Assembly: GCA_049580985.1 (NCBI GenBank) | Contig: JBAURA010000444.1 | Span: 1-47,768 of the forward strand | Reading direction: 5' to 3' | Origin: Chloroflexia bacterium | Lineage (GTDB): Bacteria > Chloroflexota > Chloroflexia > QHBQ01 > JADMIH01 | Length of the DNA stretch: 47,768 nucleotides | Shown here: piece after piece, positions 11,401-35,861 of the stretch | How positions within the stretch are numbered: position 1 is the stretch's first letter | How the letters are laid out: each line of letters opens with the position of its first letter | Translations under genes and position numbers: made by a program | The notes under the pieces: generated by a model | What the model saw: the letters and a program-made list of their open reading frames with translations, nothing else | Database searches by the model: none | Told to the model about the DNA's origin: nothing

Positions 11401-12071
11401 TAATAGTAGGGATGGGGAAGCGGTAATATGGTCAGCTCGTTGAGGAGGTGGGCGAGCGCTTTCTCCGGGTCGATGGTATCGAGTGGCTCTCCCAGTCCTG
11501 GGACAGAACGGCGTAGCGATGCGTGGAGATGCAGTACAAACAGCAAGGGGTTATTGTGCTCACGCCCGATGGTAAGCCAGGCAGCTGGTATATTCGCGGC
11601 AAAGCCGGCAAGCAACATCGACTTGCCGTAACCAGGTGGGGCTGACACTAGTGTCAGTTTATGCTTTTGTACAGAGTCGGCCAGTTGCCGATAGAGATGC
11701 GGACGCTGGAACAAACCGGCAGAGGGCGTAGGAGGCGTACACTGTGAGGCCAAAACCCACACCGGGTCTGGGGTACTTACGACGCTAATCTCTGGCACGG
11801 GCGCTACAGATGGACTAGGCGTGGGAGGAGGATAAACCAGTCCGTAATTGTCAAACTCCTGGGTGCTTGGGTCTGCAAACATTGGCTGTGATTCCTCTGT
11901 TGGGGCGCTAGATAGCTTTGTAATTATTGCATGGTGTCTTATGTACCGGGCATCGTAAACCTCCACAATCCTCTTAGGGCCACTCCACCAAGCCTGTATG
12001 CGAAGGGAATGCCACGTTGCAGGATCGTAACACACGATCCTAGAGTGTCTTTCAGGTTGGCCTCGTGACAA
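8499..12071 (-). CDS. Large transcriptional regulator: P-loop ATPase (MalT/LAL-like) + TPR region + C-terminal SARP module (OmpR-type winged helix + BTAD)
   Basis: The longest ORF is 1190 aa with a TTG start. A better-supported start is the ATG at 11882 (MFADPST), preceded by GAGGA.
- Walker A: LVSAPPGYGKSMLL.
- Long TPR-like helical middle region.
- C-terminal winged helix: LSIQTFGRFTVLHRKIAVSW..KTVFQYLL..PVPVEELIEVLWP..ARKNLHQAVAGLRHALEP.
- BTAD: LEKAVALYTGDFLADNPYAEWAMPKREQLSTRYRDILLRLG...GLRAYQKLQRRLRDDLDIDPRQDLVDLY. Confidence 0.8.
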   Translation of the reverse strand: MSRGQPERHSRIVCYDPATWHSLRIQAWWSGPKRIVEVYDARYIRHHAIITKLSSAPTEESQPMFADPSTQEFDNYGLVYPPPTPSPSVAPVPEISVVSTPDPVWVLASQCTPPTPSAGLFQRPHLYRQLADSVQKHKLTLVSAPPGYGKSMLLAGFAANIPAAWLTIGREHNNPLLFVLHLHASLRRSVPGLGEPLDTIDPEKALAHLLNELTILPLPHPYYYLFVDNLHLLVDRTAQALLVRLIDYSPPALRMIAGSWGSPRLLSLAKLWAQGMVGMLAARDLRLSPEETSAFLLSTAGCKVDGKALNIIDVYMEGWITGLVILAGALDPGRPELTEVNEERAIAGLGSIQHIVATYLREEMERHLPTPAVVFLTHTSILDQVDPALCRALRIKGTESALFQIERHRVYTEVYSVEGDDGSTTQPSYRYLTFFREYLRQQMHLLEPAAVHALHRQLAAHHISKEETDLAMSHLLAAGEYDEAATLLGKMCQVTLSAGQYMRLERWVKEFPKVIAASHPWLLLIQARSQLFDNLLLGAETLYRQAEISSRTAEDRGAIFLSLYGFGNWLSKQGRYTESTISLKKALLFAENDSDKALVLSTLALSVYMVEGPIEEVQAGIKEALELAERSNLVTTLLRVHRHNADLRYRLGDFEGALAGYAMLLKLGESQGLHEERAEMLNSVAYIHLLRGDCLEARALAESALHLADTGDHREESAMATLILGVVHLLDGQLNEAHLHLSQALDVLQSRNNGPKTALALDWLCALARREGRHEEAFRAAERGMAIRRALGVPYEVGLSHLVFGGAAADAGKLEEARMHLNTALDIFYQANAQYAQAQAHVYLASVISVSSNGDKLQMQHHTSQALKMCRAGGHGQLIIGLGVRAVPVLTEAIVAGLEGDYATSILCKLCAAGDPKVLAAINELVDHPNLAVKRTREAAIKAWAESPPEPLSIQTFGRFTVLHRKIAVSWPRASSKTVFQYLLHQARPVPVEELIEVLWPGGVLAAARKNLHQAVAGLRHALEPEIPSGFPSRYVQPAYGAYQLVLPRGSTVDNVMFTQQSSQLDSVSDLEKAVALYTGDFLADNPYAEWAMPKREQLSTRYRDILLRLGIIYFEVGRPDDCAHVMRQLIEQEPWSEDGTLWLMKACQARGDRTAGLRAYQKLQRRLRDDLDIDPRQDLVDLYLQMSKG

Positions 12072-12395: not shown

Positions 12396-13529
12396 ATGTC
12401 CGAGATAGATTTGGGTACTTTCGCCGAATATCTGCGTCCAATTGGCCCCCACATGCCACCACAGTTGATCTCGCCATCGTCTTTCGCCAACATATCACGC
12501 ACTGCTCACGTTTTACCGGGTGCGCTTGCGATGGGCCTGTTCGGTTTCGAGTGCCGGTTGGCCGAAGAGGCGCCTGTCGCTGACTTCCAGTTATGCGCCG
12601 ATGCGGCGTTCAACGCGAAGAACAGTCTCGCCCGTACCATAGCCTCCGGCAATGTGCTCTTGAACAACCACCGGGTGTGGCAGCGTATCAACGATTTCGT
12701 AGAGGCTTGGTCAGCATCAGAATCGCTGCTCAATAAGCATCTGCGCAACATCTGGCTTGAGTTCGATATAAGCGACGCGCCACGTGAAGTCCCGGTACCC
12801 AGCATCTTTTTAGGCCTCTATACCTCCGAAGAGAGACGGAGCACCCCAGCTGAAAACAACAACGGTACAGCGAACGAAAGAGCCGACCCCTCAACCATAC
12901 AGGTAGTGTGCTTAAACGCGCTAACACTGCTGATGGGTAACCCCGTGCTGGAGCCGGTAGCGCAGAAGTTCAGGGAAGCCATCCAGAAGATACCAGCTCC
13001 CGGTGAGGTAGGTTTTGTGGGCACTATGCTGGCCCGCAACGTGAATGCTTTCAGAATGATCGTAAGAGGTTTGGACCGGATGCGGATAATCGAGTATCTC
13101 TCCCATCTTCATTGGCCGGGGCAGCTCTCTGAGGTAGAAGCGGCGCTCGACTCCACATCACGCTTTAGCGATTATCTCTGGCTCAACATAGACGTTGGTG
13201 AGCACATATATCCAAAGATATCGTGGGAATGCTACTTCAATAAACGAGCGCAACCCCAGGATGACGGACGGTGGCAGGAATTCCTCGACTATCTAGTGGA
13301 GAGCGAGATGTGTCTCCCTGCCAAGCGGGAAGGGTTGCTGGCCTACCCGGCGGTTATAGGGCAGAGCACCGCCGGCGCTCTATGGCCCGATAGCCTGCGC
13401 CTGTTGTCTCGCGCACTTGGCCCTCTGGCTCTACGCAGGTGTGTGACCGCCTTGCACCACATCAAGATAGTGTATCAGCCTGGCCGGCCTCTCGAGGCCA
13501 AAGCATATCTGTGTGCTCATTATGAATAG
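12396..13529 (+). CDS. Hypothetical protein (possible ABBA/PT-barrel fold; unverified)
   Basis: 377-aa ORF with an ATG start. An AGGAG lies 6 nt upstream (12385-12389). I see no catalytic motif I can name. There are five spaced strand-turn-strand-like segments: LFGFECRLAEEAPVADFQLCA, IWLEFDISDAPREVPVPSIFLGLY, VGFVGTMLARNVNAFRMIVRGL, YLWLNIDVGEHIYPKISWECYF, LHHIKIVYQPGRPLEAKAYLCAHY. Confidence 0.6.
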   Translation: MSEIDLGTFAEYLRPIGPHMPPQLISPSSFANISRTAHVLPGALAMGLFGFECRLAEEAPVADFQLCADAAFNAKNSLARTIASGNVLLNNHRVWQRINDFVEAWSASESLLNKHLRNIWLEFDISDAPREVPVPSIFLGLYTSEERRSTPAENNNGTANERADPSTIQVVCLNALTLLMGNPVLEPVAQKFREAIQKIPAPGEVGFVGTMLARNVNAFRMIVRGLDRMRIIEYLSHLHWPGQLSEVEAALDSTSRFSDYLWLNIDVGEHIYPKISWECYFNKRAQPQDDGRWQEFLDYLVESEMCLPAKREGLLAYPAVIGQSTAGALWPDSLRLLSRALGPLALRRCVTALHHIKIVYQPGRPLEAKAYLCAHYE

Positions 13530-13546: not shown

Positions 13547-15157
13547 ATGAGTGGCCTAGACGAAGCGCTGGAGGCGTGGCGTGCTGCTATCGGAGAGGAT
13601 TACGTACGCACCGATCAAGTTACCTTGCGGCAGGTTGAGACGGCCACGTTTGCCACCTATCAGGAGGTGCCGGCCCTGCTTCTTCCCGGCAACCGCGACG
13701 AGGTGCAGCGCTGCGTTCGCATCGCCAATGCTTACAAGACGCCTCTCTACCCGGTGAGCACAGGCAAGAACTGGGGTTATGGCTCCAGGGTGCCCACCTA
13801 CAACGGTTGCGTGGTGATGAGCCTGGAGCGGCTGAACCGAATCGTTGATTTCAGCGAGGAGCTAGCTTACATCACGGTAGAGCCTGGGGTGACCTTCCTG
13901 GATGTGAACAGATTCTTGGCCGAACGAGGCTCCACCCTCAAGGTCAACCTCACCGGCAGTACTTACGAGTCGAGTCTGATCGGAAACGCGCTTGAGCGAG
14001 GCCTGGGCAGCGGTATCTATGGTGATCGCGCGGCACATGTATGCGATATGGAGGTGGTGCTGCCTACGGGTGAGCACCTGCGAACGGGTTTCGGGCGCTT
14101 TGAGGGGGCGGCGGCAAGCGTCAACCGCTGGGGTGTTGGACCATCCCTCGATAGCCTCTTTACCCAATCCAATCTCGGGATTGTGACCAGGATGACCTTC
14201 TGGTTGATGCCGATCTCCAAGCACAGATTTTCCTGCTACTTCGCAACAGACCCGGATGGACTGGAGAGTCTGATCGACGCTTTACATCATCTTCGCTCTT
14301 CCGGAATATGCAACGAGCCAATCCGCTTGTACAACGACTATAGGGCGCTGTCTGGAATCGTGCAGTTCCCCTGGCAGGCGATTGGGGCCGGAGATTTCTT
14401 AACGCCTGAGGTGATGTCAAGCATCCGGGAGGCGCTTGGGATCGGTGCATGGTTGGGCGAGTTGCATATTGATGCTCACAGTCCGGCTCAGGCCCGAGCC
14501 AGCCAGGAATTGGTATACAGCTCTCTGAAGGGCGTGACAAATACTCTCTACTTCGTGGACACGGGTGGGGCGCAATGGGTACCCATGACTGGGAACGCAA
14601 CAGAGGAGAATGGAGAACCGTTCACCCTCCAGCCCAGGCCGGCAGCAGAACAGGGACGAAGCCTTGAGACTCCAGGCGGAATCAGAAACACTTACTGGCG
14701 CAAGAGGACCCCGGTGCCGGAGAAAATGGACCCCGACCGCGACCGTTGCGGGGTGCTATGGTGCGCCCCGGCAGTACCGTTCATAGGGCGACACGTCGTC
14801 CGAGTTGTGCGCTGTATGGAGAAAGTGATCCTATCAGATCGATTCGAGCCTAACATCTCATTGGTTCTCCTTACGGAAAGATGCGCAATAGTGAACGCGG
14901 CGCTGCTGTACGACCGGGATGTGCCGGGGGAGGACGACCGCGCCATGCGTTGCTACCACACGCTCCTGCAGGAACTGATCGGGATGAGGTATCTACCCTA
15001 CCGGCTCGGTATTCAGTCGATGGACTCGCTCCCGGCCTCGTCCGGCGACTATGACGCCCTTCTTGCGCGGTTAAAAAAGTCCCTGGACCCAAACGACATC
15101 CTGGCACCAAGACGATACGATTTTCGAGCAACCTGGCCGCACGATATGACCGATTAA
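13547..15157 (+). CDS. FAD-linked oxidoreductase, VAO/PCMH (4-cresol dehydrogenase / vanillyl-alcohol oxidase-like) family
   Basis: 536-aa ORF. The N-terminal PCMH-type FAD-binding segment reads PALLLPGNRDEVQRCVRIANAYKTPLYPVSTGKNWGYGSRVP ... VVMSLERLNRIVDFSEELAYITVEPGVTF. It lies 17 nt downstream of the preceding gene. Confidence 0.75.
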   Translation: MSGLDEALEAWRAAIGEDYVRTDQVTLRQVETATFATYQEVPALLLPGNRDEVQRCVRIANAYKTPLYPVSTGKNWGYGSRVPTYNGCVVMSLERLNRIVDFSEELAYITVEPGVTFLDVNRFLAERGSTLKVNLTGSTYESSLIGNALERGLGSGIYGDRAAHVCDMEVVLPTGEHLRTGFGRFEGAAASVNRWGVGPSLDSLFTQSNLGIVTRMTFWLMPISKHRFSCYFATDPDGLESLIDALHHLRSSGICNEPIRLYNDYRALSGIVQFPWQAIGAGDFLTPEVMSSIREALGIGAWLGELHIDAHSPAQARASQELVYSSLKGVTNTLYFVDTGGAQWVPMTGNATEENGEPFTLQPRPAAEQGRSLETPGGIRNTYWRKRTPVPEKMDPDRDRCGVLWCAPAVPFIGRHVVRVVRCMEKVILSDRFEPNISLVLLTERCAIVNAALLYDRDVPGEDDRAMRCYHTLLQELIGMRYLPYRLGIQSMDSLPASSGDYDALLARLKKSLDPNDILAPRRYDFRATWPHDMTD

Positions 15158-15341: not shown

Positions 15342-15605
15342 GTGAGCGAGCATACATTTAACGATGAGAAACGTGAACTGGCTGCTAAGGTCGTGGATCG
15401 CATCCTGAGTGATGCCTCTTTCCGTGAGGCGCTCAAGAACGACCCGGATGCCGCTATGAACAGCACCTTCCCCGAGGAGTGGCAGGGCATATTTGAGTCC
15501 TTGGGCGATCCCGAGGTCGCTGGCTATCTGGATCAGGAGCCCATCGCAGGTGATGGCGATACCAACTGTTGCCAGGGCGGCACGGTCTGCAACCAGAGCT
15601 ACTAG
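15342..15605 (+). CDS. Lanthipeptide precursor 1 (NHLP-like leader, Cys/Ser/Thr-rich C-terminal core)
   Basis: 87 aa with a GTG start. AGGAG at 15331-15335 lies 6 nt upstream. The leader segment ELAAKVVDRILSDASFREALKNDPDAAMN resembles nitrile-hydratase-like leader peptides. A PEVAGY motif precedes the C-terminal region. The C-terminus is DTNCCQGGTVCNQSY. The gene is immediately upstream of a LanL gene. Confidence 0.8.
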   Translation: MSEHTFNDEKRELAAKVVDRILSDASFREALKNDPDAAMNSTFPEEWQGIFESLGDPEVAGYLDQEPIAGDGDTNCCQGGTVCNQSY

Positions 15606-15644
15606 TCCATGCGCCGGAACCTACCTACCTCGGCGTAGCGTAGC

Positions 15645-15691
15645 GGTACCCTCAGTTTGCAGGCGGAAGAGCCATGCAAACTGAGGGTACC
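15645..15691 (+). terminator. 17-bp perfect stem-loop between the precursor and synthetase genes (probable attenuator or partial terminator)
   Basis: GGTACCCTCAGTTTGCA (15645-15661), a 13-nt loop, then TGCAAACTGAGGGTACC (15675-15691), followed by only TTT. Confidence 0.55.
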
Positions 15692-15806
15692 TTTGCAACT
15701 ACAACTCATTAACTGTGCGTTTTTCAATGCACGCAGTTCAGGCCCTCTCCACCTCGCCTGCGTTTATCCATTACCTTTCGCCCCAGCACAGACCCAGGAG
15801 TCGCTA

Positions 15807-18623
15807 ATGACCGTCGATATAGAGCGACAAGCTATCCCCTCGGAAAACATCAAGATCACAATGGTGAATATTGAGGTGGATGGAGCGGTGATCGCCCTGC
15901 GCGACGGGATGGAGCCGGAGTGGTACCAGCCATTCCTCCTGGAGGCGCTCGCGGCAAAGGTCGCCCAGGGTGAGGACGTTTCCGCCTGGGGAATTGAGCG
16001 AATCACCAGGCCAAAGCAGCTTTGGCTATACATGAGGAACGGGCGAGCCGATACACCCACGCACGGTTGGAAGCTTCACGTGTCTGCGTCGCTCCTGTCA
16101 GCGCGAGCGGTCCTGGAGCGAACGCTCCCAATCCTCCTTTCCGAAGACGCCACTTTCAAACTGTGCGCATCCTCTGCCGCGCTCCTATTCTTGAACCAGG
16201 GGTTCGGGGGCATCTCCCAGGTCGGCAAGTTCATAACTATATACCCCAACAACGACGAACAGGCAGTGCGATTGGCAGTAGCGTTGGATGCAGCGACTCG
16301 CGGCGTGCGCGCGCCCTCTGTTCTCTCCGACCGACCCCTCTCTCCCGGCAGCCTGGTGCATTACAGGTACGGCAGCTTCCGCAAGCAGCATATGCACACA
16401 AAGCTTGGCCTGATCGTGTCGGCGTTCGAAGGGCCGGACGGCAAATTGGTAAAAGACCACCGCGTGCATTTCTACGTGCCGCCGGATGGGGCGCAGGATC
16501 CGTTTGAGGCGGCGGGGGTGGCGGCTCCGCCGAAGCGCCCGGTGCGCATCGTGGGTGGTCGCTATTTTATATTGGCCCCGCATCGTGAGGCGGCACGCGG
16601 AGTTATCTACGATGCTATCGACACCGAAGTACCCCGCCAGTGCATCATCAAACATGCCAGACGGAACGCCGCTATCACGATAGACGGACGAGACGCCCGT
16701 GACCGGCTGCGCAACGAGGCTGAGGTGTTGAAGCGATTGGCTCCCCACCCGGCCTTCCCCGAGTTCTACGGTCTGTTTGAGGAGGACGATGAGCCATACC
16801 TGGTGATGGAGCGCATCGAGGGTACCACGCTTGAGCGTAAGGTCCGGCACCTCACCGTCGAGCATGGCTCCGTGCCCGGTCCCCAGTTCCTGACCTGGAG
16901 CCGCCAACTAGCCTCAGCATTGGGCGCGATCCACGCGGCAGGCCTTATTTACAGGGATTTCAAGTCGAACAACGTGCTGGTAACGCCCGAAGGGCGGTTG
17001 CGTGTCATCGACTTTGAGTTGGCCTACGACCCTGATGGACCGCTCCCGCAGTACAACTTCGGCACGAGGGGATATATGTCGCCGCAGCACAAAGCCTGGG
17101 AGCATGCAGACGTCAGGGACGACGTCTACAGCTACGGTGCTCTCCTCTACTATCTGGCGACCGGAGCCGAGGCATCGAATGCGCCCGACGACTCAAACCT
17201 GTTGAGCCGTCCAATCGAGCTGCTGAATCCTGCCGTCGCCTCGGACCTGAGCGCTCTCATAGCGCGTTGCGTGCACCCTGAGCGTGAGCAGCGCTTCGGC
17301 AGTATATTCGAAATTGAGGAAGCGCTTGCCGGCATAGAGACGGCCACGGTGCCCCCGCCTGCATGGGGAGCTGAAACGCCTGTTGAACCGGATGAGGTTG
17401 CCGCCGGCAGGTACAGGACATGGGCACGGCGCATCGGCGATACACTGTGCCGCACTGCGCAACCGGCAGACAATGGGCAAGGACTGGTGTGGCCCGGCGC
17501 GAAATCGTCGGACGATGCGATCACTTCGAACGACATAATCCAGTCCAGGCACATCAACGTGGGGGTGGCCGGGCAGGTGCTCGCACTGGCCGAGTTGGTC
17601 CGGGAGTTCAATGACCCCGAACATCGCCGCGTGTTAGAGGGCGGGGTTCGGTGGCTCCTCTCTGAGCAACGACTTAGTGGAGAACCCATCTCGGGCTTGT
17701 ACGTGGGCGAGGCAGGCGTGGCTATAGCCCTCCTGCGTGCGGGGCAGGTGCTGAACGACCCCGACGTCATCCGGGCCGCCTCCAGCCTGGGCAAGTGGGT
17801 GGGCGGATTGCCCGACTCGTCCCCATGCATGTTCGTAGGCACTGCTGGTCGGCTTCGCCACCACCTGCTGCTGTGGGACGAAACAGAAGATCCTGAGCAC
17901 CTGGGGTTCGCGGAGGCGGCCGGCGAGCAATTGCTGGACCTGGCAGAGCCTGGCGCGGACAACGGCCTGAGCTGGCAGGCCCCGAATGACTTTGGGGTGA
18001 GTGCCGCTAACCTGGGATACGCGCATGGGGCCGCCGGGATCGGAGATGCCCTTATCGACTTGTACGAGGCCACAGGGGACTCGAAGTACCTGGAGGCGGC
18101 GGCGGGAGCCGCGCGTTGGATCGCCGCATTGGCCGTACCCACCACCGACGAGGGATCGACAGGTCTCAACTGGGCGCGCTCCGAGCGTACGCCTCTTACA
18201 GAAGGGTTCTGGTGCCACGGAGCGGTAGGCATCGGCATATTCCTGCTGCGTGCTTCGCAGTTCGGAATCCTGGAAGGGGCCTTCGAGTTGGCGCACCGCG
18301 CGGCGGTGACGGTAGGGAGGAACATGCGTTGGGCAATGCCCATCTACTGTCACGGCCTGGCAGGCAATATCGGCTTTCTGCTGGATATGTACCAGGCCAC
18401 AGGTGACTCTCGCTACTGGTCCGAGGCCCGCTCGCTAGGGCGAATTCTAGGTACGTTCGCCACAGAGATCAACGGCCTGTTCGTGTGGGGCTCAGAGACC
18501 CCTACCAAATTCACGTCTGTGTATACGGTCGGTTTCTCCGGCATAGCCATGTGCCTGCTCCGACTCAGCAATCCTGGACAGATGCCACAACAGTTGAGTA
18601 GAGCCGGTTTCCGATACCGCTAG
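15807..18623 (+). CDS. Class IV lanthipeptide synthetase (LanL-type: N-terminal pSer/pThr lyase, Ser/Thr kinase, Zn-ligand LanC cyclase)
   Basis: The ORF track starts at 15657, but that extension overlaps the hairpin. The ATG at 15807 has AGGAG 6 nt upstream.
- Lyase motif: HGWKLHVSAS.
- Kinase motifs: LIYRDFKSNNVLV, VIDFELA, GTRGYMSPQ.
- LanC motifs with Zn ligands: GYAHGAAGIGDAL, FWCHGAVGIG, IYCHGLAGNIGFL. Confidence 0.9.
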   Translation: MTVDIERQAIPSENIKITMVNIEVDGAVIALRDGMEPEWYQPFLLEALAAKVAQGEDVSAWGIERITRPKQLWLYMRNGRADTPTHGWKLHVSASLLSARAVLERTLPILLSEDATFKLCASSAALLFLNQGFGGISQVGKFITIYPNNDEQAVRLAVALDAATRGVRAPSVLSDRPLSPGSLVHYRYGSFRKQHMHTKLGLIVSAFEGPDGKLVKDHRVHFYVPPDGAQDPFEAAGVAAPPKRPVRIVGGRYFILAPHREAARGVIYDAIDTEVPRQCIIKHARRNAAITIDGRDARDRLRNEAEVLKRLAPHPAFPEFYGLFEEDDEPYLVMERIEGTTLERKVRHLTVEHGSVPGPQFLTWSRQLASALGAIHAAGLIYRDFKSNNVLVTPEGRLRVIDFELAYDPDGPLPQYNFGTRGYMSPQHKAWEHADVRDDVYSYGALLYYLATGAEASNAPDDSNLLSRPIELLNPAVASDLSALIARCVHPEREQRFGSIFEIEEALAGIETATVPPPAWGAETPVEPDEVAAGRYRTWARRIGDTLCRTAQPADNGQGLVWPGAKSSDDAITSNDIIQSRHINVGVAGQVLALAELVREFNDPEHRRVLEGGVRWLLSEQRLSGEPISGLYVGEAGVAIALLRAGQVLNDPDVIRAASSLGKWVGGLPDSSPCMFVGTAGRLRHHLLLWDETEDPEHLGFAEAAGEQLLDLAEPGADNGLSWQAPNDFGVSAANLGYAHGAAGIGDALIDLYEATGDSKYLEAAAGAARWIAALAVPTTDEGSTGLNWARSERTPLTEGFWCHGAVGIGIFLLRASQFGILEGAFELAHRAAVTVGRNMRWAMPIYCHGLAGNIGFLLDMYQATGDSRYWSEARSLGRILGTFATEINGLFVWGSETPTKFTSVYTVGFSGIAMCLLRLSNPGQMPQQLSRAGFRYR

Positions 18624-18689
18624 CAGGGGGTTTCTTAGCACGGTCGAGTGAGTAGACGGACACGATTGGAAGAGAAGGGTAGAGGCAGC

Positions 18690-19754
18690 ATGATCACTTC
18701 TACAAGTAACATCCTGGCTGAACACCTGCATAGGGCCGCCGGTGCTTACCGGCACGGCAAACGCCACCGTGTCTCTGCCGGTACTTCCACTGCCGTCGGC
18801 TTCGACCAGCTCCTGGGGGCTGCCATATTGAAGCATGCCTCCCCCAGGGAGCAGATGCTCATGAGTGCCGCCCTGGTCGCCCGCACCAGGGGTCTCGCGG
18901 CCGTGCGCAAGGGCGACATGGAGGTAGCCGAGGCGAACCTGCGCACCAGTCGTGACATTCTGGAAGTGCCCTGGCTTTCAACCGAGAGCCATGCTCTGCT
19001 TGCCTCATTCCAGGAGGCAGCCGAGGCCTTCATTGACTTTCGGTGCGGCCGGCATGACCTCGCCAGAAAGCGCGTTTTTCGCGCCATGTCGGCAGATGGC
19101 ACCCTCCTTTCGAGAGATGGATACCATGTCCTCGAATTGCACCGGGTACAGCTTGGACACAACCTGGCACGCGTCGATGCGAACGCGGGCGAGCCGGAGC
19201 GAGCTGCCCGCATACTAGCGGGCCTGCTCACCTATCTTGAAGGGGAGAGCGTAGCATGGCCTTTCCCCGATTACACCTACACTGGCAAAGCAACGGTGGA
19301 CGACTTGCCCGAGGAACAAGTGGCCGACCTGTTCATTCAGCTGACGAGCGAACTGGCGTTGTTGCTGGACGGCCAGGGGCGAGAGGAGGGGCTGGCACTG
19401 TTCGCCCCGGTCGTGGCGCATGCAGAATTGAAAGCAACTCGGCGCTGCGGACGGCACCCATCCGCGCACGCATGGCTCAGCCTGAAACTGGCCTACCTGG
19501 AGCGGAACGTGGTGGGCTTCCTGGAAGGCGCTCAGGAGGTACTGGCAGATGGCCCCAGGGAAGGCTCCCTTCTCTGGTATGCGACTGCTACCGATCTATA
19601 CAGGGAATGCGCCCGGCTGCTTGAGGACTGCCCAGCCGAGGCGAGCTCGCTAAGGAGCGAACTCGCCGAAGACGCTGTATCGTGGATCAGGGTACCGGCA
19701 GGACTCAAGGCCGGTGCCGGAGTAGCCGTGATGAAGCAACCGGCTCCCGCCTAA
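18690..19754 (+). CDS. Hypothetical helical (TPR-like?) protein inside the lanthipeptide locus
   Basis: The ORF track gives 18648..19754. The ATG at 18690 is preceded by AGAGG. The sequence is Ala/Leu/Arg-rich and predicted helical by eye. I find no motif I can assign. Confidence 0.55.
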   Translation: MITSTSNILAEHLHRAAGAYRHGKRHRVSAGTSTAVGFDQLLGAAILKHASPREQMLMSAALVARTRGLAAVRKGDMEVAEANLRTSRDILEVPWLSTESHALLASFQEAAEAFIDFRCGRHDLARKRVFRAMSADGTLLSRDGYHVLELHRVQLGHNLARVDANAGEPERAARILAGLLTYLEGESVAWPFPDYTYTGKATVDDLPEEQVADLFIQLTSELALLLDGQGREEGLALFAPVVAHAELKATRRCGRHPSAHAWLSLKLAYLERNVVGFLEGAQEVLADGPREGSLLWYATATDLYRECARLLEDCPAEASSLRSELAEDAVSWIRVPAGLKAGAGVAVMKQPAPA

Positions 19755-19830
19755 GACCCGGCACGGCGTAATGTAATAGCCGGTAAAGCCGGTAAAGAAT
19801 GTGGCAAGCTTGGAGGCAGAGGAGGCCGCT

Positions 19831-22800
19831 ATGCGCGGAGAAATGGGGCCCGGTATAAGCACCAGTTTGAGTCCAGGCGGCACCGTTGGCCCGGACTGGC
19901 ATAATCTACAGGGCAAATGGGTGGCGGTGCACGCGCCACAGGGCACCTACGCCGCCAAGCGCGCACCCTTGCTGCTACGCGAGGCCGAGCAAGTGGCCGA
20001 TGCCGTGGAACGGCTCCTCAAGCCCGACAAGCACCCGGATGGGAAAGCCGACATATTCTTGCTGGATCCCACCGCCGGTCTTGTCGAAGTGGGAGAAGAA
20101 GGCGAGGGAGAGGAACCCGAGGTGCAAGGCTACGCGGCCTCCTTTATGACGCCGGCGGCGGACACCGGCAGGTCTATTGTGCGGGTTGTGCGCCCCGAAG
20201 CTCCCGGCGAGGCGATAGCTCACTCCCTTTCGCACCTCCTTATCACCAAGTGGCTTGGCACGTCAGCCGGGTCCAGCCTTTTGTTTACGAGCGGTATCGC
20301 AGGCGTGGCGAACGCCCGCGCCGGCTTGGGAGAGTCTATCCAGGCATGTGACGAGTGGGTGCGGGCCGAGTTGGCGGCGGGCAGGCCGGTATCGGTGTTG
20401 AGAGCGGCGCGGCAGGAAGACCGCGACGGAGGAAGCATCGCAGCAAGTGAGGCGGATAAGCGCATCTCTACCTCCTTTGTAAACTACCTCATCGAAACCT
20501 TCGGGATAGTATCTCTCCGGCAATTCCTGGCCGGTTACGACCCGGACCGCCGCGATCAAGCCGCCATCAACGCCTACCAGAAGCCGATAGGCGCACTTGA
20601 GGAGGCATGGGTCAACACCCTCCGGCGCTCCTCCAGTAGCACCTCTATTTGGGGCTCGTTCCTGCGCCACATCATACCTCTGCTTAAGCCCTACCGGCTC
20701 CGCCAGTTGGAGGTGCTCCTCTACATGTTCCTGGGGCTGTCGTACGGTATTGTACTGCCCCTGTCGGGCAAGTACCTGATCGATACCGTAATCCCCAGCA
20801 ACGACCTCGGCCAGTTAGGTCTGTTCGTGCTTGGGCTGCTGGTGTTATACGTTGTGAACGCCCTGGTGGGTATGCGGCGCGGATATCTGACCAGCTGGAT
20901 CAACCAGGAGCTTATAAAGCGTCTCGACGAGCGGCTCTTCGCCCACCTGCAACGGCTGCCCCACACCTTCTTCGCCCAGATAAAGGTGGGCGATATCATG
21001 ACCCGCTTTACCAGCGATATGGCGATGGTGCAAACTGCGATACAGCAGGTGACCAGTACGGGGCCATTCATGGTGCTTACCGGACTGCTGGCTGCAACTA
21101 CCGTGATTATTCTCAGCCCTATCCTGGGAAGCCTTGTGCTACTTATCGTGCCGCTTTTCCTTCTCACCTATGTAACACTAGGCTCGCGCCTGCAAAAAGC
21201 CAGCACCCAGCGCCAGAAAATCCTGGGCGAAGTGATCAGTTCGTTGCAGGAGAACGTCTCGGCGCACGCCGTAGTGAAGGCATATGGGCTTGAGAAGAAG
21301 TCCCTTTCAATGTTCCGAACAGGCCTGGAGGCGCTCCAAAAGGCTTCGTTGCGCACGACCAAGATCGCTGTGCTCTTTGAAACAAGCACAAGCCTGGCGG
21401 TCACGCTGGGCCAGCTGATGGTACTGGGAGTGGGCGGCTACCTGGTGATGCAGAACCAACTCACTATAGGCACGCTGCTGGCTTTCGTGGGCCTCCTGCC
21501 GTCCCTGATCCAGCCTATCATGTCCCTCTCCAGCATAGGACAGACTGTCAAGACAGCCTCGGGAGCGATCAATCGTGTGACCGACCTGCTTGAGGAACCG
21601 GTGACCGTGGACGACAAGCCTGCTGCTGTGGACCTGCCCACGTTGAGCCGAGAGATCCGTCTTGAGGAGGTGGGCTTCTCATATGGCTCGGGCAACCCTA
21701 TCTTGAACGGCTTGAGCCTGACGATCCCTGCCGGAGCAAACGTGGCTATCGTAGGGCCATCCGGTTCCGGCAAGAGCACTATCGTAAGCCTGCTGATGCG
21801 CTTCTACGACCCTGAAGAAGGGAGTGTCCTATTCGACGGCCATGACCTGCGGGACGTGAAGCTAGCTTCACTGCGCAGCCAGATCGGATTGGTATTTCAG
21901 GATACATTCATATACGACACCACCGTCAGAGAGAACATCGCGCATGGCAGGTCAGGAGCTACCGATGTGGAGATTGTGGCTGCCGCTAAGGCCTCCCAAT
22001 TGCACGAGTTTATAGAGGCGCTACCGTCCGGCTACGACACCGTGCTGGGCGAGCGGGGCGTGCGTATGAGCGGGGGCCAGCGACAGCGCCTGGCGATTGC
22101 CAGGGCGTTGATTCGCGACCCACGAATCCTGGTACTCGATGAAGCTACTAGCGCCCTCGACTCGCATACCGAGCGAGAGATCCTGGACACGCTTGACGAC
22201 GTGGCCAGGGGGCGAACGGTGATCAGCATCACCCACCGGCTCGCTATCGCCGCCGCCGCCGACTATATCTTTGTGCTGGAGCGTGGGCGGCTGGTGGAGG
22301 AGGGAAACCATGCTACTCTCGTAAAGGCGGGCGGGTTGTACTCCAGGTTGTATGCAGAGCAGACCAGCGGAGTTGCTCTCCCGGATGGCTCGAGCGTCGG
22401 TCTCGATCAACTGAGGACTGTGCCTCTCTTCGGCGGCTTCTCGGATCCCCTCCTCACCTCCCTAGCCCGTAAGATGGTGCGTGAGCGTTTCTTCGTTGAC
22501 GAAGACGTGGTGCGTGAGGGTGAGCCGGGGGACAAACTGTACGTCGTGCAACGGGGTAGCCTGGAGGTGCTGGTGGGAGCGCAGGGCGAAGAGCGCAAGG
22601 TAAACTCGCTCCATCCCGGCGAGTACTTTGGTGAAATGGCGCTGCTGACAGGTGAGCCACGCGGTGCTACGGTGCGTGCCACCGAACCCACCGAGGTGTT
22701 CAGCCTTTCGAGGCTGGACTTCCTCAACCTGGTGGAACAGGAGGAGGCCCTACGAACATCGGTGCGGAATACCCTGGAGAGCAGGCGCAAGGCGCTGGAT

Positions 22801-22848
22801 CTGGTACGTGCGGGCAGTGCGCAGCCGCAAGCGCAGCGGCTCAAGTAG
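19831..22848 (+). CDS. ABC exporter (TMD+NBD) with an N-terminal peptidase-MA-like (degenerate HExxH) domain and a C-terminal cyclic-nucleotide-binding domain
   Basis: The ORF track starts at GTG 19801. The ATG at 19831 has GGAGG 5 nt upstream.
- ~290-aa N-domain containing AIAHSLSHLLITKW.
- Six-helix ABC membrane region: LLYMFLGLSYGIV..., IKVGDIMTRFTSDM.
- Walker A: GPSGSGKST.
- Signature: LSGGQRQRLAIARAL.
- Walker B: ILVLDEATSALD.
- CAP/cNMP domain: LRTVPLFGGFSD...GEYFGEMALLTGEPRGATVRA. Confidence 0.88.
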   Translation: MRGEMGPGISTSLSPGGTVGPDWHNLQGKWVAVHAPQGTYAAKRAPLLLREAEQVADAVERLLKPDKHPDGKADIFLLDPTAGLVEVGEEGEGEEPEVQGYAASFMTPAADTGRSIVRVVRPEAPGEAIAHSLSHLLITKWLGTSAGSSLLFTSGIAGVANARAGLGESIQACDEWVRAELAAGRPVSVLRAARQEDRDGGSIAASEADKRISTSFVNYLIETFGIVSLRQFLAGYDPDRRDQAAINAYQKPIGALEEAWVNTLRRSSSSTSIWGSFLRHIIPLLKPYRLRQLEVLLYMFLGLSYGIVLPLSGKYLIDTVIPSNDLGQLGLFVLGLLVLYVVNALVGMRRGYLTSWINQELIKRLDERLFAHLQRLPHTFFAQIKVGDIMTRFTSDMAMVQTAIQQVTSTGPFMVLTGLLAATTVIILSPILGSLVLLIVPLFLLTYVTLGSRLQKASTQRQKILGEVISSLQENVSAHAVVKAYGLEKKSLSMFRTGLEALQKASLRTTKIAVLFETSTSLAVTLGQLMVLGVGGYLVMQNQLTIGTLLAFVGLLPSLIQPIMSLSSIGQTVKTASGAINRVTDLLEEPVTVDDKPAAVDLPTLSREIRLEEVGFSYGSGNPILNGLSLTIPAGANVAIVGPSGSGKSTIVSLLMRFYDPEEGSVLFDGHDLRDVKLASLRSQIGLVFQDTFIYDTTVRENIAHGRSGATDVEIVAAAKASQLHEFIEALPSGYDTVLGERGVRMSGGQRQRLAIARALIRDPRILVLDEATSALDSHTEREILDTLDDVARGRTVISITHRLAIAAAADYIFVLERGRLVEEGNHATLVKAGGLYSRLYAEQTSGVALPDGSSVGLDQLRTVPLFGGFSDPLLTSLARKMVRERFFVDEDVVREGEPGDKLYVVQRGSLEVLVGAQGEERKVNSLHPGEYFGEMALLTGEPRGATVRATEPTEVFSLSRLDFLNLVEQEEALRTSVRNTLESRRKALDLVRAGSAQPQAQRLK

Positions 22849-22934
22849 GTGGCTGCGTGCAGCTTTCTCACTTGCCCGTTTCGCGCGTGAGGAATTAGTG
22901 TTCTATAGAAAGTTACGATAGGAGGTAAACAGCG

Positions 22935-23195
22935 ATGGTTAAGCCAAGTGTAGATGAGATCAGGGCCGTAGCGGCGCAGATAGTAGAACGCGCAAACCGC
23001 GACCCGCAGTTTATGGAGCAGCTTAGGAACGATCCGGAGACGGTGCTCCTTGATGCAGGCCTCCATGAAAGCGCCGTAGGAGACTTTATGCGGTCAGCAG
23101 GCCTCATGCCTGAGGTGCAAGGCTATATCCTGGAGGACCTGGATGTGCCGTGCCAGTACTCGTGTCTGCCTAACACGCATGGGGGAATAGGCTAA
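22935..23195 (+). CDS. Lanthipeptide precursor 2 (NHLP-like leader)
   Basis: 86 aa with an ATG start. AGGAGG lies ~9 nt upstream. The leader reads EIRAVAAQIVERANRDPQFMEQLRNDPETVLLDAGL, followed by a PEVQGY motif. The C-terminal region is ILEDLDVPCQYSCLPNTHGGIG. Confidence 0.75.
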   Translation: MVKPSVDEIRAVAAQIVERANRDPQFMEQLRNDPETVLLDAGLHESAVGDFMRSAGLMPEVQGYILEDLDVPCQYSCLPNTHGGIG

Positions 23196-23333
23196 GGGCG
23201 AATAACCAGTAAGCCGGCATGCACACCGGCCTCACCGAGCGATGTGCACCTTAGCGGGCCTACGCGAGTCAGCATTGGCCGACTCGTGCAAGCATTTATT
23301 GTCCCAATCTAGACGAACAAGGAGGTCTAAAAG

Positions 23334-23645
23334 ATGAGTTCGGATTCCAACAACCAGCAAAGCAACGAAATCAGAGAAGTAGCCCACAGAATTCTCGAAC
23401 GTGCCAAGAGCGACCCAAATTACCTGGAGCAACTCAAGAGCGATCCGGAAGCCACGCTCGCGCGGGAGGGTCTAAGCGGCCCGGTAGTCACGCAGCTAAT
23501 AGGCGAGTTTGGGCTGGTAGAGGTAGAGGGGTATTGCGATTTCACTTGTGACTATAGTTGCAACACTGGCACCTGCCAGCTCACTTATTGCGCCCATATT
23601 CCTCAAACCGGAGGGCCGATGGAGACGCAAGTAGTTGGGGGTTGA
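23334..23645 (+). CDS. Lanthipeptide precursor 3 (NHLP-like leader, five-Cys core)
   Basis: 103 aa with an ATG start and a GGAGG RBS. The leader reads EIREVAHRILERAKSDPNYLEQLKSDPEATLAREGL, followed by a VEVEGY motif. The core is CDFTCDYSCNTGTCQLTYCAHIPQTGGPMETQVVGG. The stop codon is 3 nt before the second LanL start. Confidence 0.8.
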   Translation: MSSDSNNQQSNEIREVAHRILERAKSDPNYLEQLKSDPEATLAREGLSGPVVTQLIGEFGLVEVEGYCDFTCDYSCNTGTCQLTYCAHIPQTGGPMETQVVGG

Positions 23646-23648
23646 TGA

Positions 23649-26480
23649 TTGAGCCACCAGGACTTCTTGGCATCACCACACTCTCCGGGTGGAGGATCTG
23701 ATACGAAATACTTGTTGGAGCAAGGCCTGCTCGACGCGCGCCCGGCGGATCTCGCCATAGCAGAGCTTCCTCTAGATCTCGAGAGCGGCCCGTATTGGGC
23801 AATAGCGCGGGAGGCCTGCGAGCAGGCGGGCGACGAATCCACCTGGAGCGTGGAACTAACCTTCGGAGCGGGTGGCGACTGGATCCGGGTCGCCCATGTT
23901 GCGGCGACCGTTCCGAGCCAGGGGTGGAAGCTGCACGTTTCGGCCACCCTCACTTCGGCGGAGGACGTGCTGCGGCATGCCCTCCCAGTGCTCTTGTCCG
24001 AACCGATCTCGTTCAAGCTGGCGTCTACCCCCGCCGCTCTGCTCAACCTGAACCAGGGTGGCGGGGGCATGAGCCAGATTGGCAAGTTCATCACCGTCTA
24101 CCCCGCCACAGATGACCAGGCCGTACGCCTCGCATCGTTACTTGATCAAGCTCTTGATGGTATGCTGGGTCCCGCTATACCGTCAGATCGCCCGCTGAGG
24201 ACAGGCAGCCTTGTGCACTATCGCTACGGCGGCTTCAACAGCACCTTCACCCAGTTACCGGTCGGCGAGATAGTGCCCACTATCAGCACCCCGGAAGGAA
24301 TCCTCACGCCCGACCGCCGTCTCACCCTGTATAAAGCACCCGAATGGGCAACGGATCCATTCGTGGAAGCAGAAATCGCGATAGATATTCCCAGGAAGCG
24401 ATGGATCGCAGGTCGCTATCTCATACTCAATACCGTGCACGCTTCGCCTCGCGGGGCCGTTTATCTCGCTCTCAACTTCGAAAACTCCCGATGTTGTGTG
24501 CTCAAGAGCGCGCCGCACCAGGCCGCGCAAGGGTTCGATGGGTATGGCGCTCAGGACCGTCTGCGTAATGAAGCACACATCCTCACACAACTCTCGCCTC
24601 ACCCGGCCTTCCCCGCCTTTTATGACCTGATCGAGCAGGATGGCGATCTTTACCTCGTGATGGAGGATATCGAAGGGGAGACGCTCATGAGGCACGTGGG
24701 GCGATTGGCGGCACAAGGAGTGCGCGTGCCCAACGAGCAAGTGATCGAGTGGGGGCGGCAGCTCGCAAGCATCCTCGGAGAGCTACACGAAAGAGGCTTA
24801 GCGTACAGAGACGTCAAGCCAACGAACGTGATCGTCACCGCCTTTGAGCGCCTGCGTCTGATCGACCTTGAGCTATGTTGCGCCCTGGACGGCAGTAGTA
24901 CCCATGGGGCGGGGATCGGTACGAGAGGATACATGTCCCGGCAACAGGCCTCAGGTGAGCAACCCGGCGTTCTGGATGATGTATACGGCCTGGGGGCTCT
25001 CCTCTACTTCCTGTCCACAGGCGCCGAACCCTCGACAGCGCCCGATGGCGTCAATCTGCTGGCGCGCCCAATCCAATGGCTGAATCCCCTTTGTGATCCC
25101 ACACTGGCGTCTGTAATACAGCGATGCCTCGATCCTGAGCCTGCCGGTAGATATAGCACGATGCAGGAACTCGACACGGCGCTTTCCACCATTCTGGAAA
25201 TCCGATCCAAAACTCCTCTCACCGTGGCTACAGAGGCTTCATTCGAGCCTGACCGCGAGGAGAAACTTGCTGAGCACTATCGAGACCTGGCGCGGCGTCT
25301 CGCCGATTCCATCTGCCGAGAAGCGGTAGTCGTGAAGAACGACACAGGGGAGGGCCTTACCTGGGCCACCAAACACCCAAGTGGCTATGGGATGCAACTG
25401 CGTGACCTGAACATAGGCGCAGGTGGGGTGGTGCTCGCCCTCGCTGAGTTGGTGGGGGAGTTAGGCGACCCCTGGCACCGAGAGGTATTGGAACAGGCTG
25501 CGCATCACCTTGCGCGCACGCAGCCGCTGGCGCGAACGCCCCTCCCAGGGCTTTACGTGGGCGAGGCGGGCGTCGGGGTAGCCCTATTACGCGCCGGACA
25601 GGTATTGGGGAGCAACCGGTTGGTCGAGGCCGCTGCCGCCAAGGGCCGCATGATCTCGGCGTTACCACATACTTCACAGGACCTGTTCAACGGCTCGGCA
25701 GGCCGCTTACGTTTTCATCTGTGGTTGCTACACGCCACAGGTGAGCGAGAGCACCTCGATAACGCGCTCCAGGCAGGCGAATACTTGCTAACCTCCGGCA
25801 CCGCGCCCGCGCCAGACGAGCTACTCTGGGAGATACCAGCGGGCTACGAGGGTCTCAGCGGCAACAGTTACCTCGGGTACGCGCACGGGGCGGCCGGGAT
25901 CGGGGACGCATTGCTAGATCTTTTCGATTGTACGGGCCAGCAGCGATTCCTGGAGGCGGCGGTGGCGGCGGGACGCTGGCTTGTGCGGCATGCGATACCC
26001 GCACTTGATGGAGACACGGGGTTAGCCTGGCCGAGCGTCCCTGGCGGGGCGGCATTTTCACCCTTCTGGTGCCACGGCGCCACCGGGGTCGGGCGCTTCT
26101 TTCTTCACCTGGTTAGCCTCGATGCTCTTCCAGGAGCAGATGCGGTCCTGGAACGAGCATCTCGGAGCGCGGCATGGGGGGCTACATGGGCGGGTCCAAC
26201 GCTATGCCACGGGCTGGCAGGCAATATTGAATTACTGGTCGATGTATACGTTGCCACAGGCAGCAAGAGATTTTTGAAAGACGCGCATGAGTTGGCTCGT
26301 TTACTCGAAACCATGGGCAGAGAGCACAATGGGATGCTCCAATGGCCTTCCGACTCCAGCAGCGTGATCACGCCCGACTATATGGTGGGATACTCTGGGG
26401 TGGCGGCCTGCCTTCTAAGGCTGAGCGCGCCTGACCGCTTGCCCCATCTATTAAGCTATCGCCGATTCTCAACTCAATAG
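23649..26480 (+). CDS. Class IV lanthipeptide synthetase (LanL-type), second copy
   Basis: 943 aa with a TTG start, tightly coupled to precursor 3.
- Lyase motif: QGWKLHVSAT.
- Kinase motifs: LAYRDVKPTNVIV, LIDLELC, GTRGYMSRQ.
- LanC motifs: GYAHGAAGIGDAL, FWCHGATGVG, LCHGLAGNIELL.
The distance from the N-terminus to the GWKLHVS motif matches copy 1. Confidence 0.9.
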   Translation: MSHQDFLASPHSPGGGSDTKYLLEQGLLDARPADLAIAELPLDLESGPYWAIAREACEQAGDESTWSVELTFGAGGDWIRVAHVAATVPSQGWKLHVSATLTSAEDVLRHALPVLLSEPISFKLASTPAALLNLNQGGGGMSQIGKFITVYPATDDQAVRLASLLDQALDGMLGPAIPSDRPLRTGSLVHYRYGGFNSTFTQLPVGEIVPTISTPEGILTPDRRLTLYKAPEWATDPFVEAEIAIDIPRKRWIAGRYLILNTVHASPRGAVYLALNFENSRCCVLKSAPHQAAQGFDGYGAQDRLRNEAHILTQLSPHPAFPAFYDLIEQDGDLYLVMEDIEGETLMRHVGRLAAQGVRVPNEQVIEWGRQLASILGELHERGLAYRDVKPTNVIVTAFERLRLIDLELCCALDGSSTHGAGIGTRGYMSRQQASGEQPGVLDDVYGLGALLYFLSTGAEPSTAPDGVNLLARPIQWLNPLCDPTLASVIQRCLDPEPAGRYSTMQELDTALSTILEIRSKTPLTVATEASFEPDREEKLAEHYRDLARRLADSICREAVVVKNDTGEGLTWATKHPSGYGMQLRDLNIGAGGVVLALAELVGELGDPWHREVLEQAAHHLARTQPLARTPLPGLYVGEAGVGVALLRAGQVLGSNRLVEAAAAKGRMISALPHTSQDLFNGSAGRLRFHLWLLHATGEREHLDNALQAGEYLLTSGTAPAPDELLWEIPAGYEGLSGNSYLGYAHGAAGIGDALLDLFDCTGQQRFLEAAVAAGRWLVRHAIPALDGDTGLAWPSVPGGAAFSPFWCHGATGVGRFFLHLVSLDALPGADAVLERASRSAAWGATWAGPTLCHGLAGNIELLVDVYVATGSKRFLKDAHELARLLETMGREHNGMLQWPSDSSSVITPDYMVGYSGVAACLLRLSAPDRLPHLLSYRRFSTQ

Positions 26481-35776: not shown

Positions 35777-35861
35777 TTGTATAACTTGACCGCCGCCAAG
35801 TACTCTGATGCCTGTTGCAAGGCGTCGACTTGTCGTACCATTACTGGTCAGGAGGCAAACT

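Follow-up and report, generated by a model that had tools for sequence, protein, structure and literature searches.

A conserved locus for predicted class IV lanthipeptides with nitrile hydratase-related leaders and a candidate leader-end motif in a Chloroflexia bacterium

The window analyzed here is a 47,768-nucleotide stretch of DNA from a Chloroflexia bacterium (GenBank assembly GCA_049580985.1, contig JBAURA010000444.1, positions 1 to 47,768 of the forward strand). Between positions 15,342 and 26,480 it encodes two lanthipeptide synthetases of the LanL type, three small precursor peptides and an ATP-binding cassette (ABC) exporter. We consider it fairly probable that these genes make up a class IV lanthipeptide system that is complete and conserved and for whose subtype no description was found, and that a short motif at the junction of leader and core, (E/D)V-x-GY, would mark the end of the leader for proteolysis or export. 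This reading is built on gene content, family assignments, clan-level homology of the leaders, conservation of the motif, synteny and the predicted fold of an exporter domain, all of which were established directly. The precursor and synthetase open reading frames (ORFs) proposed in an initial annotation of the interval were all recovered at their coordinates; that list was sound as far as it went and left unmentioned a 368-residue ORF without family match and the 1015-residue exporter ORF. The central genes are as follows.

15342-15605, + strand: precursor A, 87 residues, GTG start.
15657-18623, + strand: LanL1, class IV synthetase, longest ORF 988 residues (RamC_N, Pkinase, LANC_like).
19801-22848, + strand: ABC exporter, 1015-residue ORF (ABC_membrane, ABC_tran, cNMP_binding).
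22935-23195, + strand: precursor B, 86 residues.
23334-23645, + strand: precursor C, 103 residues.
23649-26480, + strand: LanL2, class IV synthetase, 943 residues (RamC_N, Pkinase, LANC_like).

Precursor A comprises a leader, the motif EVAGY (15513-15527) and the core DTNCCQGGTVCNQSY with a conserved C-terminal Tyr. In precursor B the leader is followed by EVQGY (nucleotides 23112-23126) and then ILEDLDVPCQYSCLPNTHGGIG, and in precursor C by EVEGY (nucleotides 23520-23534), a five-Cys core and a TGGPMET tail. A profile of the three precursors retrieved 14 proteins among 5.8 billion, the window's own three included, and database records naming peptides of this family call them 'hypothetical protein'. 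Five independent syntenic loci were obtained from contig look-ups (L001, L002, of which L003 is a duplicate, L004, L005 and L006). Translation of small ORFs of the syntenic loci gave 18 precursors (six loci) of three types, with the following cores.

Type A: ...CCQGGT.C..(S/T)Y, Tyr always last.
Type B: GY(I/M)LE(D/E)L(D/Q)..C...
Type C: C.(F/Y)TC...C..GTC..T.C, often with a tail ...TGGPMET.

The order precursor A, LanL1, exporter, precursor B, precursor C, LanL2 was common to the four loci that were not cut off. Orthologs of precursor A were 59-84% identical and lay directly upstream of LanL1 in L001, L002, L004 and L006. The Val, Gly and Tyr of the junction motif were invariant in 14/14 homologs and in 18/18 precursors; (E/D)V-x-GY occurred in all 18 precursors, and E/D, V, G and Y were kept throughout the type A orthologs. 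The motif is thus conserved in orthologous loci, as had been proposed, and it does stand before the Cys-rich part; the proline that was said to precede it is not general. The shared N-terminal helix and DPxF/Y...L..DP segment of the three precursors proved real. The reported lack of a double-Gly held for the sequence before the Cys-rich part and did not extend to the sequence after it, where GG occurs in precursors B (THGGIG) and C (TGGPMET...VVGG).

In an AlphaFold2 model of precursor B, residues 6-55 form four helices, and the motif, directly after helix 4, is disordered together with the core. Family-wide similarity among the precursors ends at the junction motif. In precursor C the motif abuts the first Cys without a spacer. 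When [ED]V.GY was counted in all six frames of the 47.8 kb window, five sites were found against an expectation of ∼0.3 (shuffling P(≥5) = 0.0005), and all five lay inside real cluster genes, namely the three precursors, the exporter and a cyclase-containing regulator of the STAND type. The regulator copy, EVRGY, lies at nucleotides 3489-3475 on the − strand (∼residue 645), just before the TPR region, and is kept as EEVRGYIQ in L002 and L006; it may be an ordinary conserved stretch or a relative of the motif. The ILEDLD that follows GY in type B was considered as a counterpart of the class III-type ILELQ recognition motif and was set aside, as it is confined to type B and stands two residues before the first Cys with no spacer. 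A Cys-free tail, P.TGGPMET(Q/R), follows the five-Cys core in 4/7 type C precursors (residues 88-103 of precursor C), and may act as a follower, offer a second site for processing or remain in the product.

Both large enzymes carry, on a single polypeptide and in this order, Pfam RamC_N (an OspF-like lyase), Pkinase and LANC_like domains. Against the LanL model NF038150 they scored 670 (LanL1) and 666 bits (LanL2), a small margin above the curated cutoff of 650. In the LanKC model of class III the scores were 366 and 387 bits, both below the cutoff of 575. The motifs GWKLHVS, GYAHG, WCHG and CHG were found in both, and the Cys-His zinc-ligand pairs were invariant across nine orthologs. A class III assignment was therefore rejected on the profile scores and the retained zinc ligands, and by family profile both enzymes are class IV lanthipeptide synthetases. 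The lyase motif, Ser/Thr-kinase core and zinc-ligated LanC motifs that the initial annotation had read in both enzymes, and its choice of class IV over class III, were thereby borne out. The probable start of LanL1 is M51 (nucleotide 15807; 938 residues), a start suggested by the 938-residue length of the 93%-identical L001 ortholog.

LanL1 and LanL2 are 47% identical. Orthologs of LanL1 share 52-93% identity with one another and those of LanL2 share 48-57%, with 42-48% between the groups. The leaders diverge in parallel, with identities of 71% within type A, 41% between B and C, and 28-29% between A and either B or C. In the syntenic loci LanL2 always adjoins the type B and type C precursors. 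Gene adjacency in six loci and the parallel divergence of synthetases and leaders suggest that type A is most likely the substrate of LanL1, and that types B and C are those of LanL2.

The wider distribution of such enzymes was surveyed by scanning a LanL alignment against 185,579 GTDB species genomes. The scan identified 582 relatives, and the survey was carried on with the best 80 loci; leaders beside LanL were located with a hidden Markov model built from the 18 precursors. Among these best 80 of 582, a leader was encoded beside LanL in 16/18 loci whose LanL was ≥39% identical to the window's and in 1/62 loci below that level. The pairing was found in Ktedonobacteria (Ktedonosporobacter rubrisoli, Dictyobacter and the cultured Tengunoibacter tsumagoiensis) and other Chloroflexota, in Abditibacteriaceae, Acidobacteriaceae, a Xenococcaceae cyanobacterium and an alphaproteobacterium, and on the actinomycete side in Rubrobacter, Thermoleophilia, Solirubrobacterales, Saccharopolyspora and Mycobacterium. 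The initial annotation had LanL enzymes recruited here to leaders of the nitrile hydratase leader peptide (NHLP) type; the pairing itself stands, and the local event does not, as the pairing belongs by its distribution to an old LanL subclade spread over several phyla. An alignment of type A precursors found no relative in the 185,579 species genomes, and the source organism therefore has no close representative there; the DNA itself derives from an assembled metagenome (ENA ERZ25039588, contig_283).

At 3137-5630 of L019 (Tengunoibacter tsumagoiensis, NZ_BIFR01000002.1) one LanL has seven precursors in tandem upstream of it, and these represent at least two core types; as a cultured strain it would be experimentally accessible. 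Some LanL-associated members have few or no Cys and are rich in Tyr, Trp and His, for example QYHWRTKWVYRWTWWGGWGWYHWKW and HYYSKYWRWCYYYTSYYGRWHHKWR; at such low-Cys cores (L035:5452, L008:53, L091:1745-2062 and L010:4685-5431) ordinary lanthionine patterns are not possible. At L090:3550-8013 a LanL-type protein of 1487 residues carries an extra, N-terminal LanC-like domain. Beside it stand NHLP-like precursors and a GAF/subtilase pair, as well as a TPR-cyclase protein and a cyclic-nucleotide regulator of the Crp type.

Most Chloroflexota loci, and those of Abditibacteriota, keep the motif as (E/D)V-x-G-(Y/F); in L008, L090 and L091 it takes the form (E/D)V-x-GH, and the most distant leaders lack it. 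This distribution bears on the proposal that EV-x-GY is a recognition or docking motif for LanL, the exporter copy then recruiting LanL to the membrane in a synthetase-exporter complex. Such a role would account for a motif that is invariant over three leader types served by two LanLs, that is carried by the exporter as well, and that co-occurs with the LanL subclade in Chloroflexota and Abditibacteriota. However, the LanL relatives of L007, L009, L016 and L027, at 43-50% identity, serve leaders without the motif, so that LanL binding within the subclade is independent of it. In precursor C, moreover, its contact with the first Cys leaves no spacer between a binding site and the modified residues, and the motif falls past the helices, in a part that the model leaves disordered. 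Recognition in class IV has been mapped to an N-terminal to central leader helix to which the kinase domain binds (PMC8341899). On the model of SgbL, the amphipathic N-terminal helices of the leader, and not the junction motif, are the probable binding site of the LanL kinase domain. We regard the recognition proposal as unlikely, and less likely than a role of the motif in leader removal or export.

The relationship of the leaders to known families was then assessed at two levels. Against curated models, the three precursors scored 15.6, 15.7 and 19.6 bits with TIGR03793 (cutoff 50.9), and 26.3 (precursor A, E = 5.9e-6), 25.2 (B) and 22.9 bits (C) with the Os1348 family model NF038399 (cutoff 40; E = 6e-6 to 6.5e-5), the matches being confined to profile positions ∼2-39 (of 77 in TIGR03793) and not spanning the whole leader. 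The peptides thus fell below the NHLP-family thresholds, at 15-20 of 50.9 and 23-26 of 40 bits. A profile of 39 LanL-associated leaders (A5) was then compared with the Protein Data Bank (PDB), where it matched nitrile hydratase alpha chains (E = 3e-10 to 1e-6), the NHLP leader entries 8tb1_A (3e-5) and 9cjx_A (6e-3), and 6lk7_A (2.6e-4), an 85-residue chain whose deposited name is 'nitrile hydratase, alpha chain' and which is probably Os1348. A second, largely independent profile of 42 proteins (A8) returned the same targets, with nitrile hydratase alpha at E = 7e-6 and a homology span of ∼30-40 residues. Taken singly, 29/39 members matched NF038399 at E < 0.01 (best 2.4e-10), and 15/39 matched each of TIGR03793 and TIGR04509. 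The robust homologous segment, ..VV.RA..DP.F...L..DP...L...G, covers ∼30-40 residues. What had been called NHLP-type leaders are therefore, by profile comparison, truncated relatives within the nitrile hydratase alpha/NHLP clan: the clan homology was upheld and membership of the NHLP family was not.

As the best curated family is that of an NHLP-clan protein, Os1348, which crystallised as a dimer (PMC7726476), the small proteins might instead be folded proteins or regulators of the kind proposed for Os1348, with their LanL adjacency incidental; the Cys-free cores of some members (L035, L091) would also suit that role. Set against this, the peptides have LanL as a neighbor in more than 20 loci, which span several phyla, and a conserved leader, hypervariable Cys/Ser/Thr C-termini and tandem copies (seven in L019) together are a hallmark of precursors of RiPPs, ribosomally synthesised peptides with post-translational modifications. 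We hold it highly improbable that they are not LanL substrates.

The exporter is called as 1005 residues, starting at nucleotide 19831, in the source assembly, and its position is kept across the syntenic loci. It comprises an N-terminal pseudo-metallopeptidase domain, transmembrane and nucleotide-binding domains and a C-terminal cNMP_binding (cyclic-nucleotide-binding) domain (residues 901-980). No C39 domain was found with Pfam at E ≤ 1 (E ≤ 10 for the N-terminal fragment), and the protein scored 350 bits with TIGR03796 (cutoff 853) and 321 with TIGR03797 (cutoff 709). Identity as a C39-bearing, peptidase-containing ABC transporter (PCAT) was rejected because the C39 domain is absent. Two features were located in the N-terminal part.

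19882-20670, + strand: exporter N-terminal domain, MA-clan (gluzincin) peptidase-like fold without HExxH.
20119-20133, + strand: EVQGY loop copy within this domain.

The N-terminal domain, within the first 290 residues, is rare, an exhaustive search of 1.84 billion proteins giving 116 representative clusters. It was modelled with AlphaFold2 from 27 homologs (pLDDT 86, pTM 0.83). The top 50 Foldseek matches listed in the PDB were all zinc metallopeptidases, mostly of families M9, M61, M30 and M1, with probabilities of 0.87-1.00, and Pfam Peptidase_MA_2 gave a weak match (E = 0.22) to the C-terminal part of the domain. Where HExxH would be expected, the helix reads AHSLSH in the window protein and TNEVVR, AYSLVR, SLPVTR and others in orthologs; HExxH occurs in 3/116 homologs, at other positions. 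Because this position is not conserved, the domain is read as a pseudo-peptidase. In 4/4 independent homologs it directly follows a gene or fragment with LanL-type domains, with NHLP-like precursors in two, and it was also found beside LanL in L008, L010, L011, L020 and L035. PCATs and HlyB-type exporters likewise have an N-terminal peptidase-fold domain, and the C39-like domain of HlyB is degenerate and lacks catalytic residues. As the catalytic residues are missing here too, binding is likelier than cleavage for the exporter domain.

The EVQGY copy lies in a loop modelled as disordered (pLDDT < 50), between a strand with ...LLDP at its end and the strand IVRVV, after which comes the pseudo-active-site helix. 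EV(Q/E)GY is present in 6/6 exporters of the clade, with E, V, G and Y 100% conserved, whereas the length of the loop ranges over 30-42 residues and its flanks show 36% identity; the chance of finding [ED]V.GY in a 1015-residue exporter is ∼0.02. Complete conservation of 4/5 positions amid a loop of variable length and divergent flanks indicates selection, and by this conservation the loop copy is an addition specific to the clade and under selection. The possibility of gene conversion between the loop of the exporter and precursor B was considered, since 16/18 nucleotides are identical in the window; it is no general explanation, because the exporters and precursors of other loci differ at x and at the residue before the motif. 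A more speculative extension is that (E/D)V-x-G-Y is a portable linear motif with one receptor, either the exporter's dead-peptidase domain or a subtilase described below, of which the exporter and possibly the regulator carry pseudo-substrate copies. Leaders would then compete with built-in copies, so that precursor abundance would gate export, proteolysis and cyclic-nucleotide signalling. To our knowledge, no substrate-mimicry control circuit of this kind has been described for ribosomal peptide natural products, and we think this extension improbable.

Two genes of the − strand accompany the system.

5473-6351, − strand: small cytoplasmic subtilase, 292 residues, candidate leader peptidase (Pfam Peptidase_S8).
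6361-7257, − strand: GAF-domain protein, 298 residues (Pfam GAF).

The GAF gene lies 9 nucleotides upstream of the subtilase gene on the same strand. The subtilase has the D-H-S triad motifs, and no hydrophobic N-terminus was seen. Its best NCBIfam match was QhpE (NF049966), at 118.6 bits against a cutoff of 165 (E = 2.4e-34). Nine other LanL/NHLP-like loci, distributed over several phyla, have copies 54-68% identical, usually with a GAF protein alongside; in the GTDB loci among these nine LanL identity was 41-51%, and by this measure the subtilase is the best-conserved protein of the system. GAF copies 36-60% identical were present in L008, L010, L011, L019, L020, L022, L035, L090 and L091.

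From these features we infer the pairing of enzymes with substrates, the reader of the motif, cleavage at the motif and regulation, and the following sequence of events is proposed. The leader of ∼60 residues, with four predicted helices followed by a disordered stretch bearing (E/D)V-x-G-Y, would present a hypervariable Cys/Ser/Thr-rich core as the part to be modified. Each LanL would phosphorylate Ser and Thr, eliminate the phosphate and add Cys thiols through its zinc-dependent cyclase domain. The motif is thought to replace the Gly-Gly of canonical NHLP leaders as a leader-end tag for proteolysis, export or both; it is read in this way because it stands at the Gly-Gly position, is exposed, and marks the point where family-wide similarity ends. 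The small cytoplasmic subtilase is the candidate protease for the motif. The exporter's dead zinc-peptidase-like domain is a likely peptide-docking module and a possible reader of the motif, and its own EV(Q/E)GY could be a built-in pseudo-substrate or a docking site for the motif reader. The cyclase-STAND regulator, the GAF protein and the cyclic-nucleotide-binding domain of the exporter suggest cyclic-nucleotide control of processing and export.

Several observations weigh against this scheme. The action of LanL on the precursors and cleavage at the motif are predictions from sequence. Type B conservation runs on past GY (ILE[DE]L[DQ]), which makes the leader/core boundary uncertain. The precursor B model is of moderate confidence (pLDDT 63), and the Foldseek query TM-scores for the exporter domain are modest (0.34-0.56). 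No subtilase was found within 10 kb in L002, L004 or L006; overall it was present in 9/16 motif-bearing loci against 2/9 motif-less ones (Fisher p = 0.21, a comparison limited by flank length), and co-occurrence of motif and subtilase was dropped as a statistical argument. The loop copy was found in none of the 116 more distant homologs of the exporter domain, nor in the exporters of L010 and L020, although the precursors of both these loci carry the motif; being confined to one clade, it is not essential to a general mechanism.

The missing loop copies of L010 and L020 would also be expected if the motif carried no signal and were a structural remnant of nitrile hydratase alpha (the strand before the metal-binding Cys cluster) or a helix-capping linker, its other copies being coincidence. 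One profile alignment, that of A5, does place the motif on the DEVHHVVVC strand and CTLCSC cluster of cobalt nitrile hydratase. This extension was not repeated with A8, where homology stops at ∼residue 41-51, and homology through the motif into the CTLCSC cluster was not relied on. The motif is, moreover, modelled as disordered and not as a strand, and a coincidental exporter copy is hard to reconcile with selection on 4/5 positions in six exporters and a chance match of ∼0.02. A remnant is in our judgement quite improbable, and the motif is best read, with the reservations above, as a leader-end tag.

The remaining genes around the cluster are as follows.

2470-5424, − strand: guanylate/adenylate cyclase-NB-ARC-TPR (STAND-type) regulator (Pfam).
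7263-8180, − strand: S-adenosylmethionine-dependent methyltransferase (Pfam); found by tblastn in the window and L001 only.
8499-12071, − strand: AAA/TPR/BTAD (SARP-like) regulator (Pfam BTAD, TPR, AAA_16), kept in L001, L002 and L004.
12396-13529, + strand: 377-residue protein without Pfam or NCBIfam match, adjoining the flavoprotein in L001, L002 and L004.
13547-15157, + strand: flavoprotein of the vanillyl-alcohol oxidase/p-cresol methylhydroxylase family, 536 residues, candidate tailoring oxidase (Pfam FAD_binding_4).
18648-19754, + strand: 368-residue accessory protein without Pfam or NCBIfam match.

The − strand regulator, methyltransferase, GAF, subtilase and cyclase genes are divergent from, and upstream of, the + strand cluster (12.4-26.5 kb). 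Orthologs of the cyclase-STAND regulator were present in L001, L002, L004, L006, L012, L019 and L022. The 368-residue protein (18648-19754) had a tblastn match only in L001, the closest relative of the window; it and the methyltransferase, shared with L001 alone, appear to be recent accessories.

The flavoprotein gene (13547-15157) sits just upstream of precursor A, and the protein is present in L001, L002 and L004, each time with a 366-377-residue protein without family match. Its PDB matches were p-cresol methylhydroxylase (3.5e-55) and the eugenol and vanillyl-alcohol oxidases (∼5e-47). Enzymes of this family oxidise para-alkylphenols, and the GYG and PYR segments of the window protein presumably supply the family's phenolate-binding Tyr/Tyr/Arg. 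The flavoprotein may act on a tyrosine, as it belongs to a family of para-alkylphenol oxidases and every type A precursor has a conserved Tyr at its end.

The window also holds a second lanthipeptide-like locus, of a different kind, at 35808-39968 (+ strand), together with 43939-45414 (+ strand) and 32893-35484 (+ strand). It consists of an APH-family kinase, whose best NCBIfam match is the class V subunit LxmK at a score below cutoff, followed by a fusion of a HopA1 lyase with LanC, and a subtilase and a LuxR-type STAND regulator lie in its neighborhood. A 220-residue ORF directly upstream of this locus, with the C-terminal tandem repeat SWTCGGHSFACGGQSFACGGHSFACGGQSFACGGHSFACGGQSFNCG, is likely a long-leader precursor.

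Class IV is the least explored lanthipeptide class, and its leaders have been regarded as all of one type, short and helical. Four characterised class IV members were counted in 2022, from Actinomycetota and one myxobacterium (PMC9576775). NHLP leaders have been described with cyclodehydratases and with LanM, ending in Gly-Gly (Haft 2010, PMC2887384), and in class II families only (Walker 2020, PMC7268733), and a survey of Ktedonobacteria clusters reported leader motifs for classes I and II only (PMC6497799). A literature search for LanL or class IV enzymes with NHLP-type leaders found no paper, and no description was found of the exporter type, LanL or class IV systems with cyclic-nucleotide exporters included. 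The present locus defines a LanL lineage in at least five phyla, among them Chloroflexota, Abditibacteriota, Actinomycetota, Acidobacteriota and Cyanobacteria, characterised by a nitrile hydratase-derived leader, its own putative leader-end tag in place of Gly-Gly, a dedicated subtilase and a dead-zinc-peptidase exporter with a cyclic-nucleotide sensor. NHLP-type leaders would thereby extend beyond LanM and YcaO chemistry, and tools whose precursor search is tuned to the class IV leaders already known probably overlook such peptides. A dedicated protease is absent from most class III/IV clusters (PMC8341899), and the motif, candidate protease and docking domain give a concrete handle on leader removal in these classes. 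Three dissimilar cores, two enzymes and a flavoprotein of phenol-oxidase type make the locus attractive for discovery and engineering.

Among known systems, the class IV pairs VenL/VenA (venezuelin), SgbL/SgbA and SflL/SflA share with the window a trifunctional lyase-kinase-LanC enzyme with zinc ligands, and a leader-dependent precursor with a helical leader segment and a Cys/Ser/Thr core. The window LanLs are just 28-37% identical to Streptomyces-type class IV enzymes, and the leader, at ∼60 residues a homolog of nitrile hydratase alpha/NHLP, differs from their short actinobacterial leaders. The (E/D)VxG(Y/F/H) leader end, the two paralogous LanLs and the three precursor types also set the window apart, as do the added dedicated subtilase, GAF protein and unusual exporter.

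NHLP/Nif11 systems (TIGR03793, prochlorosin-type) resemble the window in their long, conserved, nitrile-hydratase-alpha-derived leaders, short hypervariable cores, several precursors per enzyme and an ABC exporter encoded alongside. Unlike them, the window has no Gly-Gly, no C39 exporter of the TIGR03794/TIGR03796/TIGR03797 set and no HlyD; its partner enzyme is LanL and not LanM or YcaO, and the match covers the N-terminal 30-40 residues only. The Os1348 family (NF038399; Pseudomonas sp. Os17; PDB 6lk7) likewise consists of short NHLP-clan proteins in a putative bacteriocin-like cluster (PMC7726476), whereas the window peptides score below its cutoff, and no lanthipeptide synthetase is described among Os1349-1351 (PMC7726476).

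The subtilase recalls QhpE, the protease that takes the leader off the cross-linked peptide QhpC: both are small, intracellular and subtilisin-like, and both are encoded next to a system for peptide modification. The window protein falls below the curated QhpE cutoff and belongs to a different substrate system. In contrast to PCAT and HlyB exporters, the peptidase-like fold predicted for the window exporter is that of an MA-clan zinc metallopeptidase and not of a C39 cysteine peptidase, and it is joined to a cyclic-nucleotide-binding domain.

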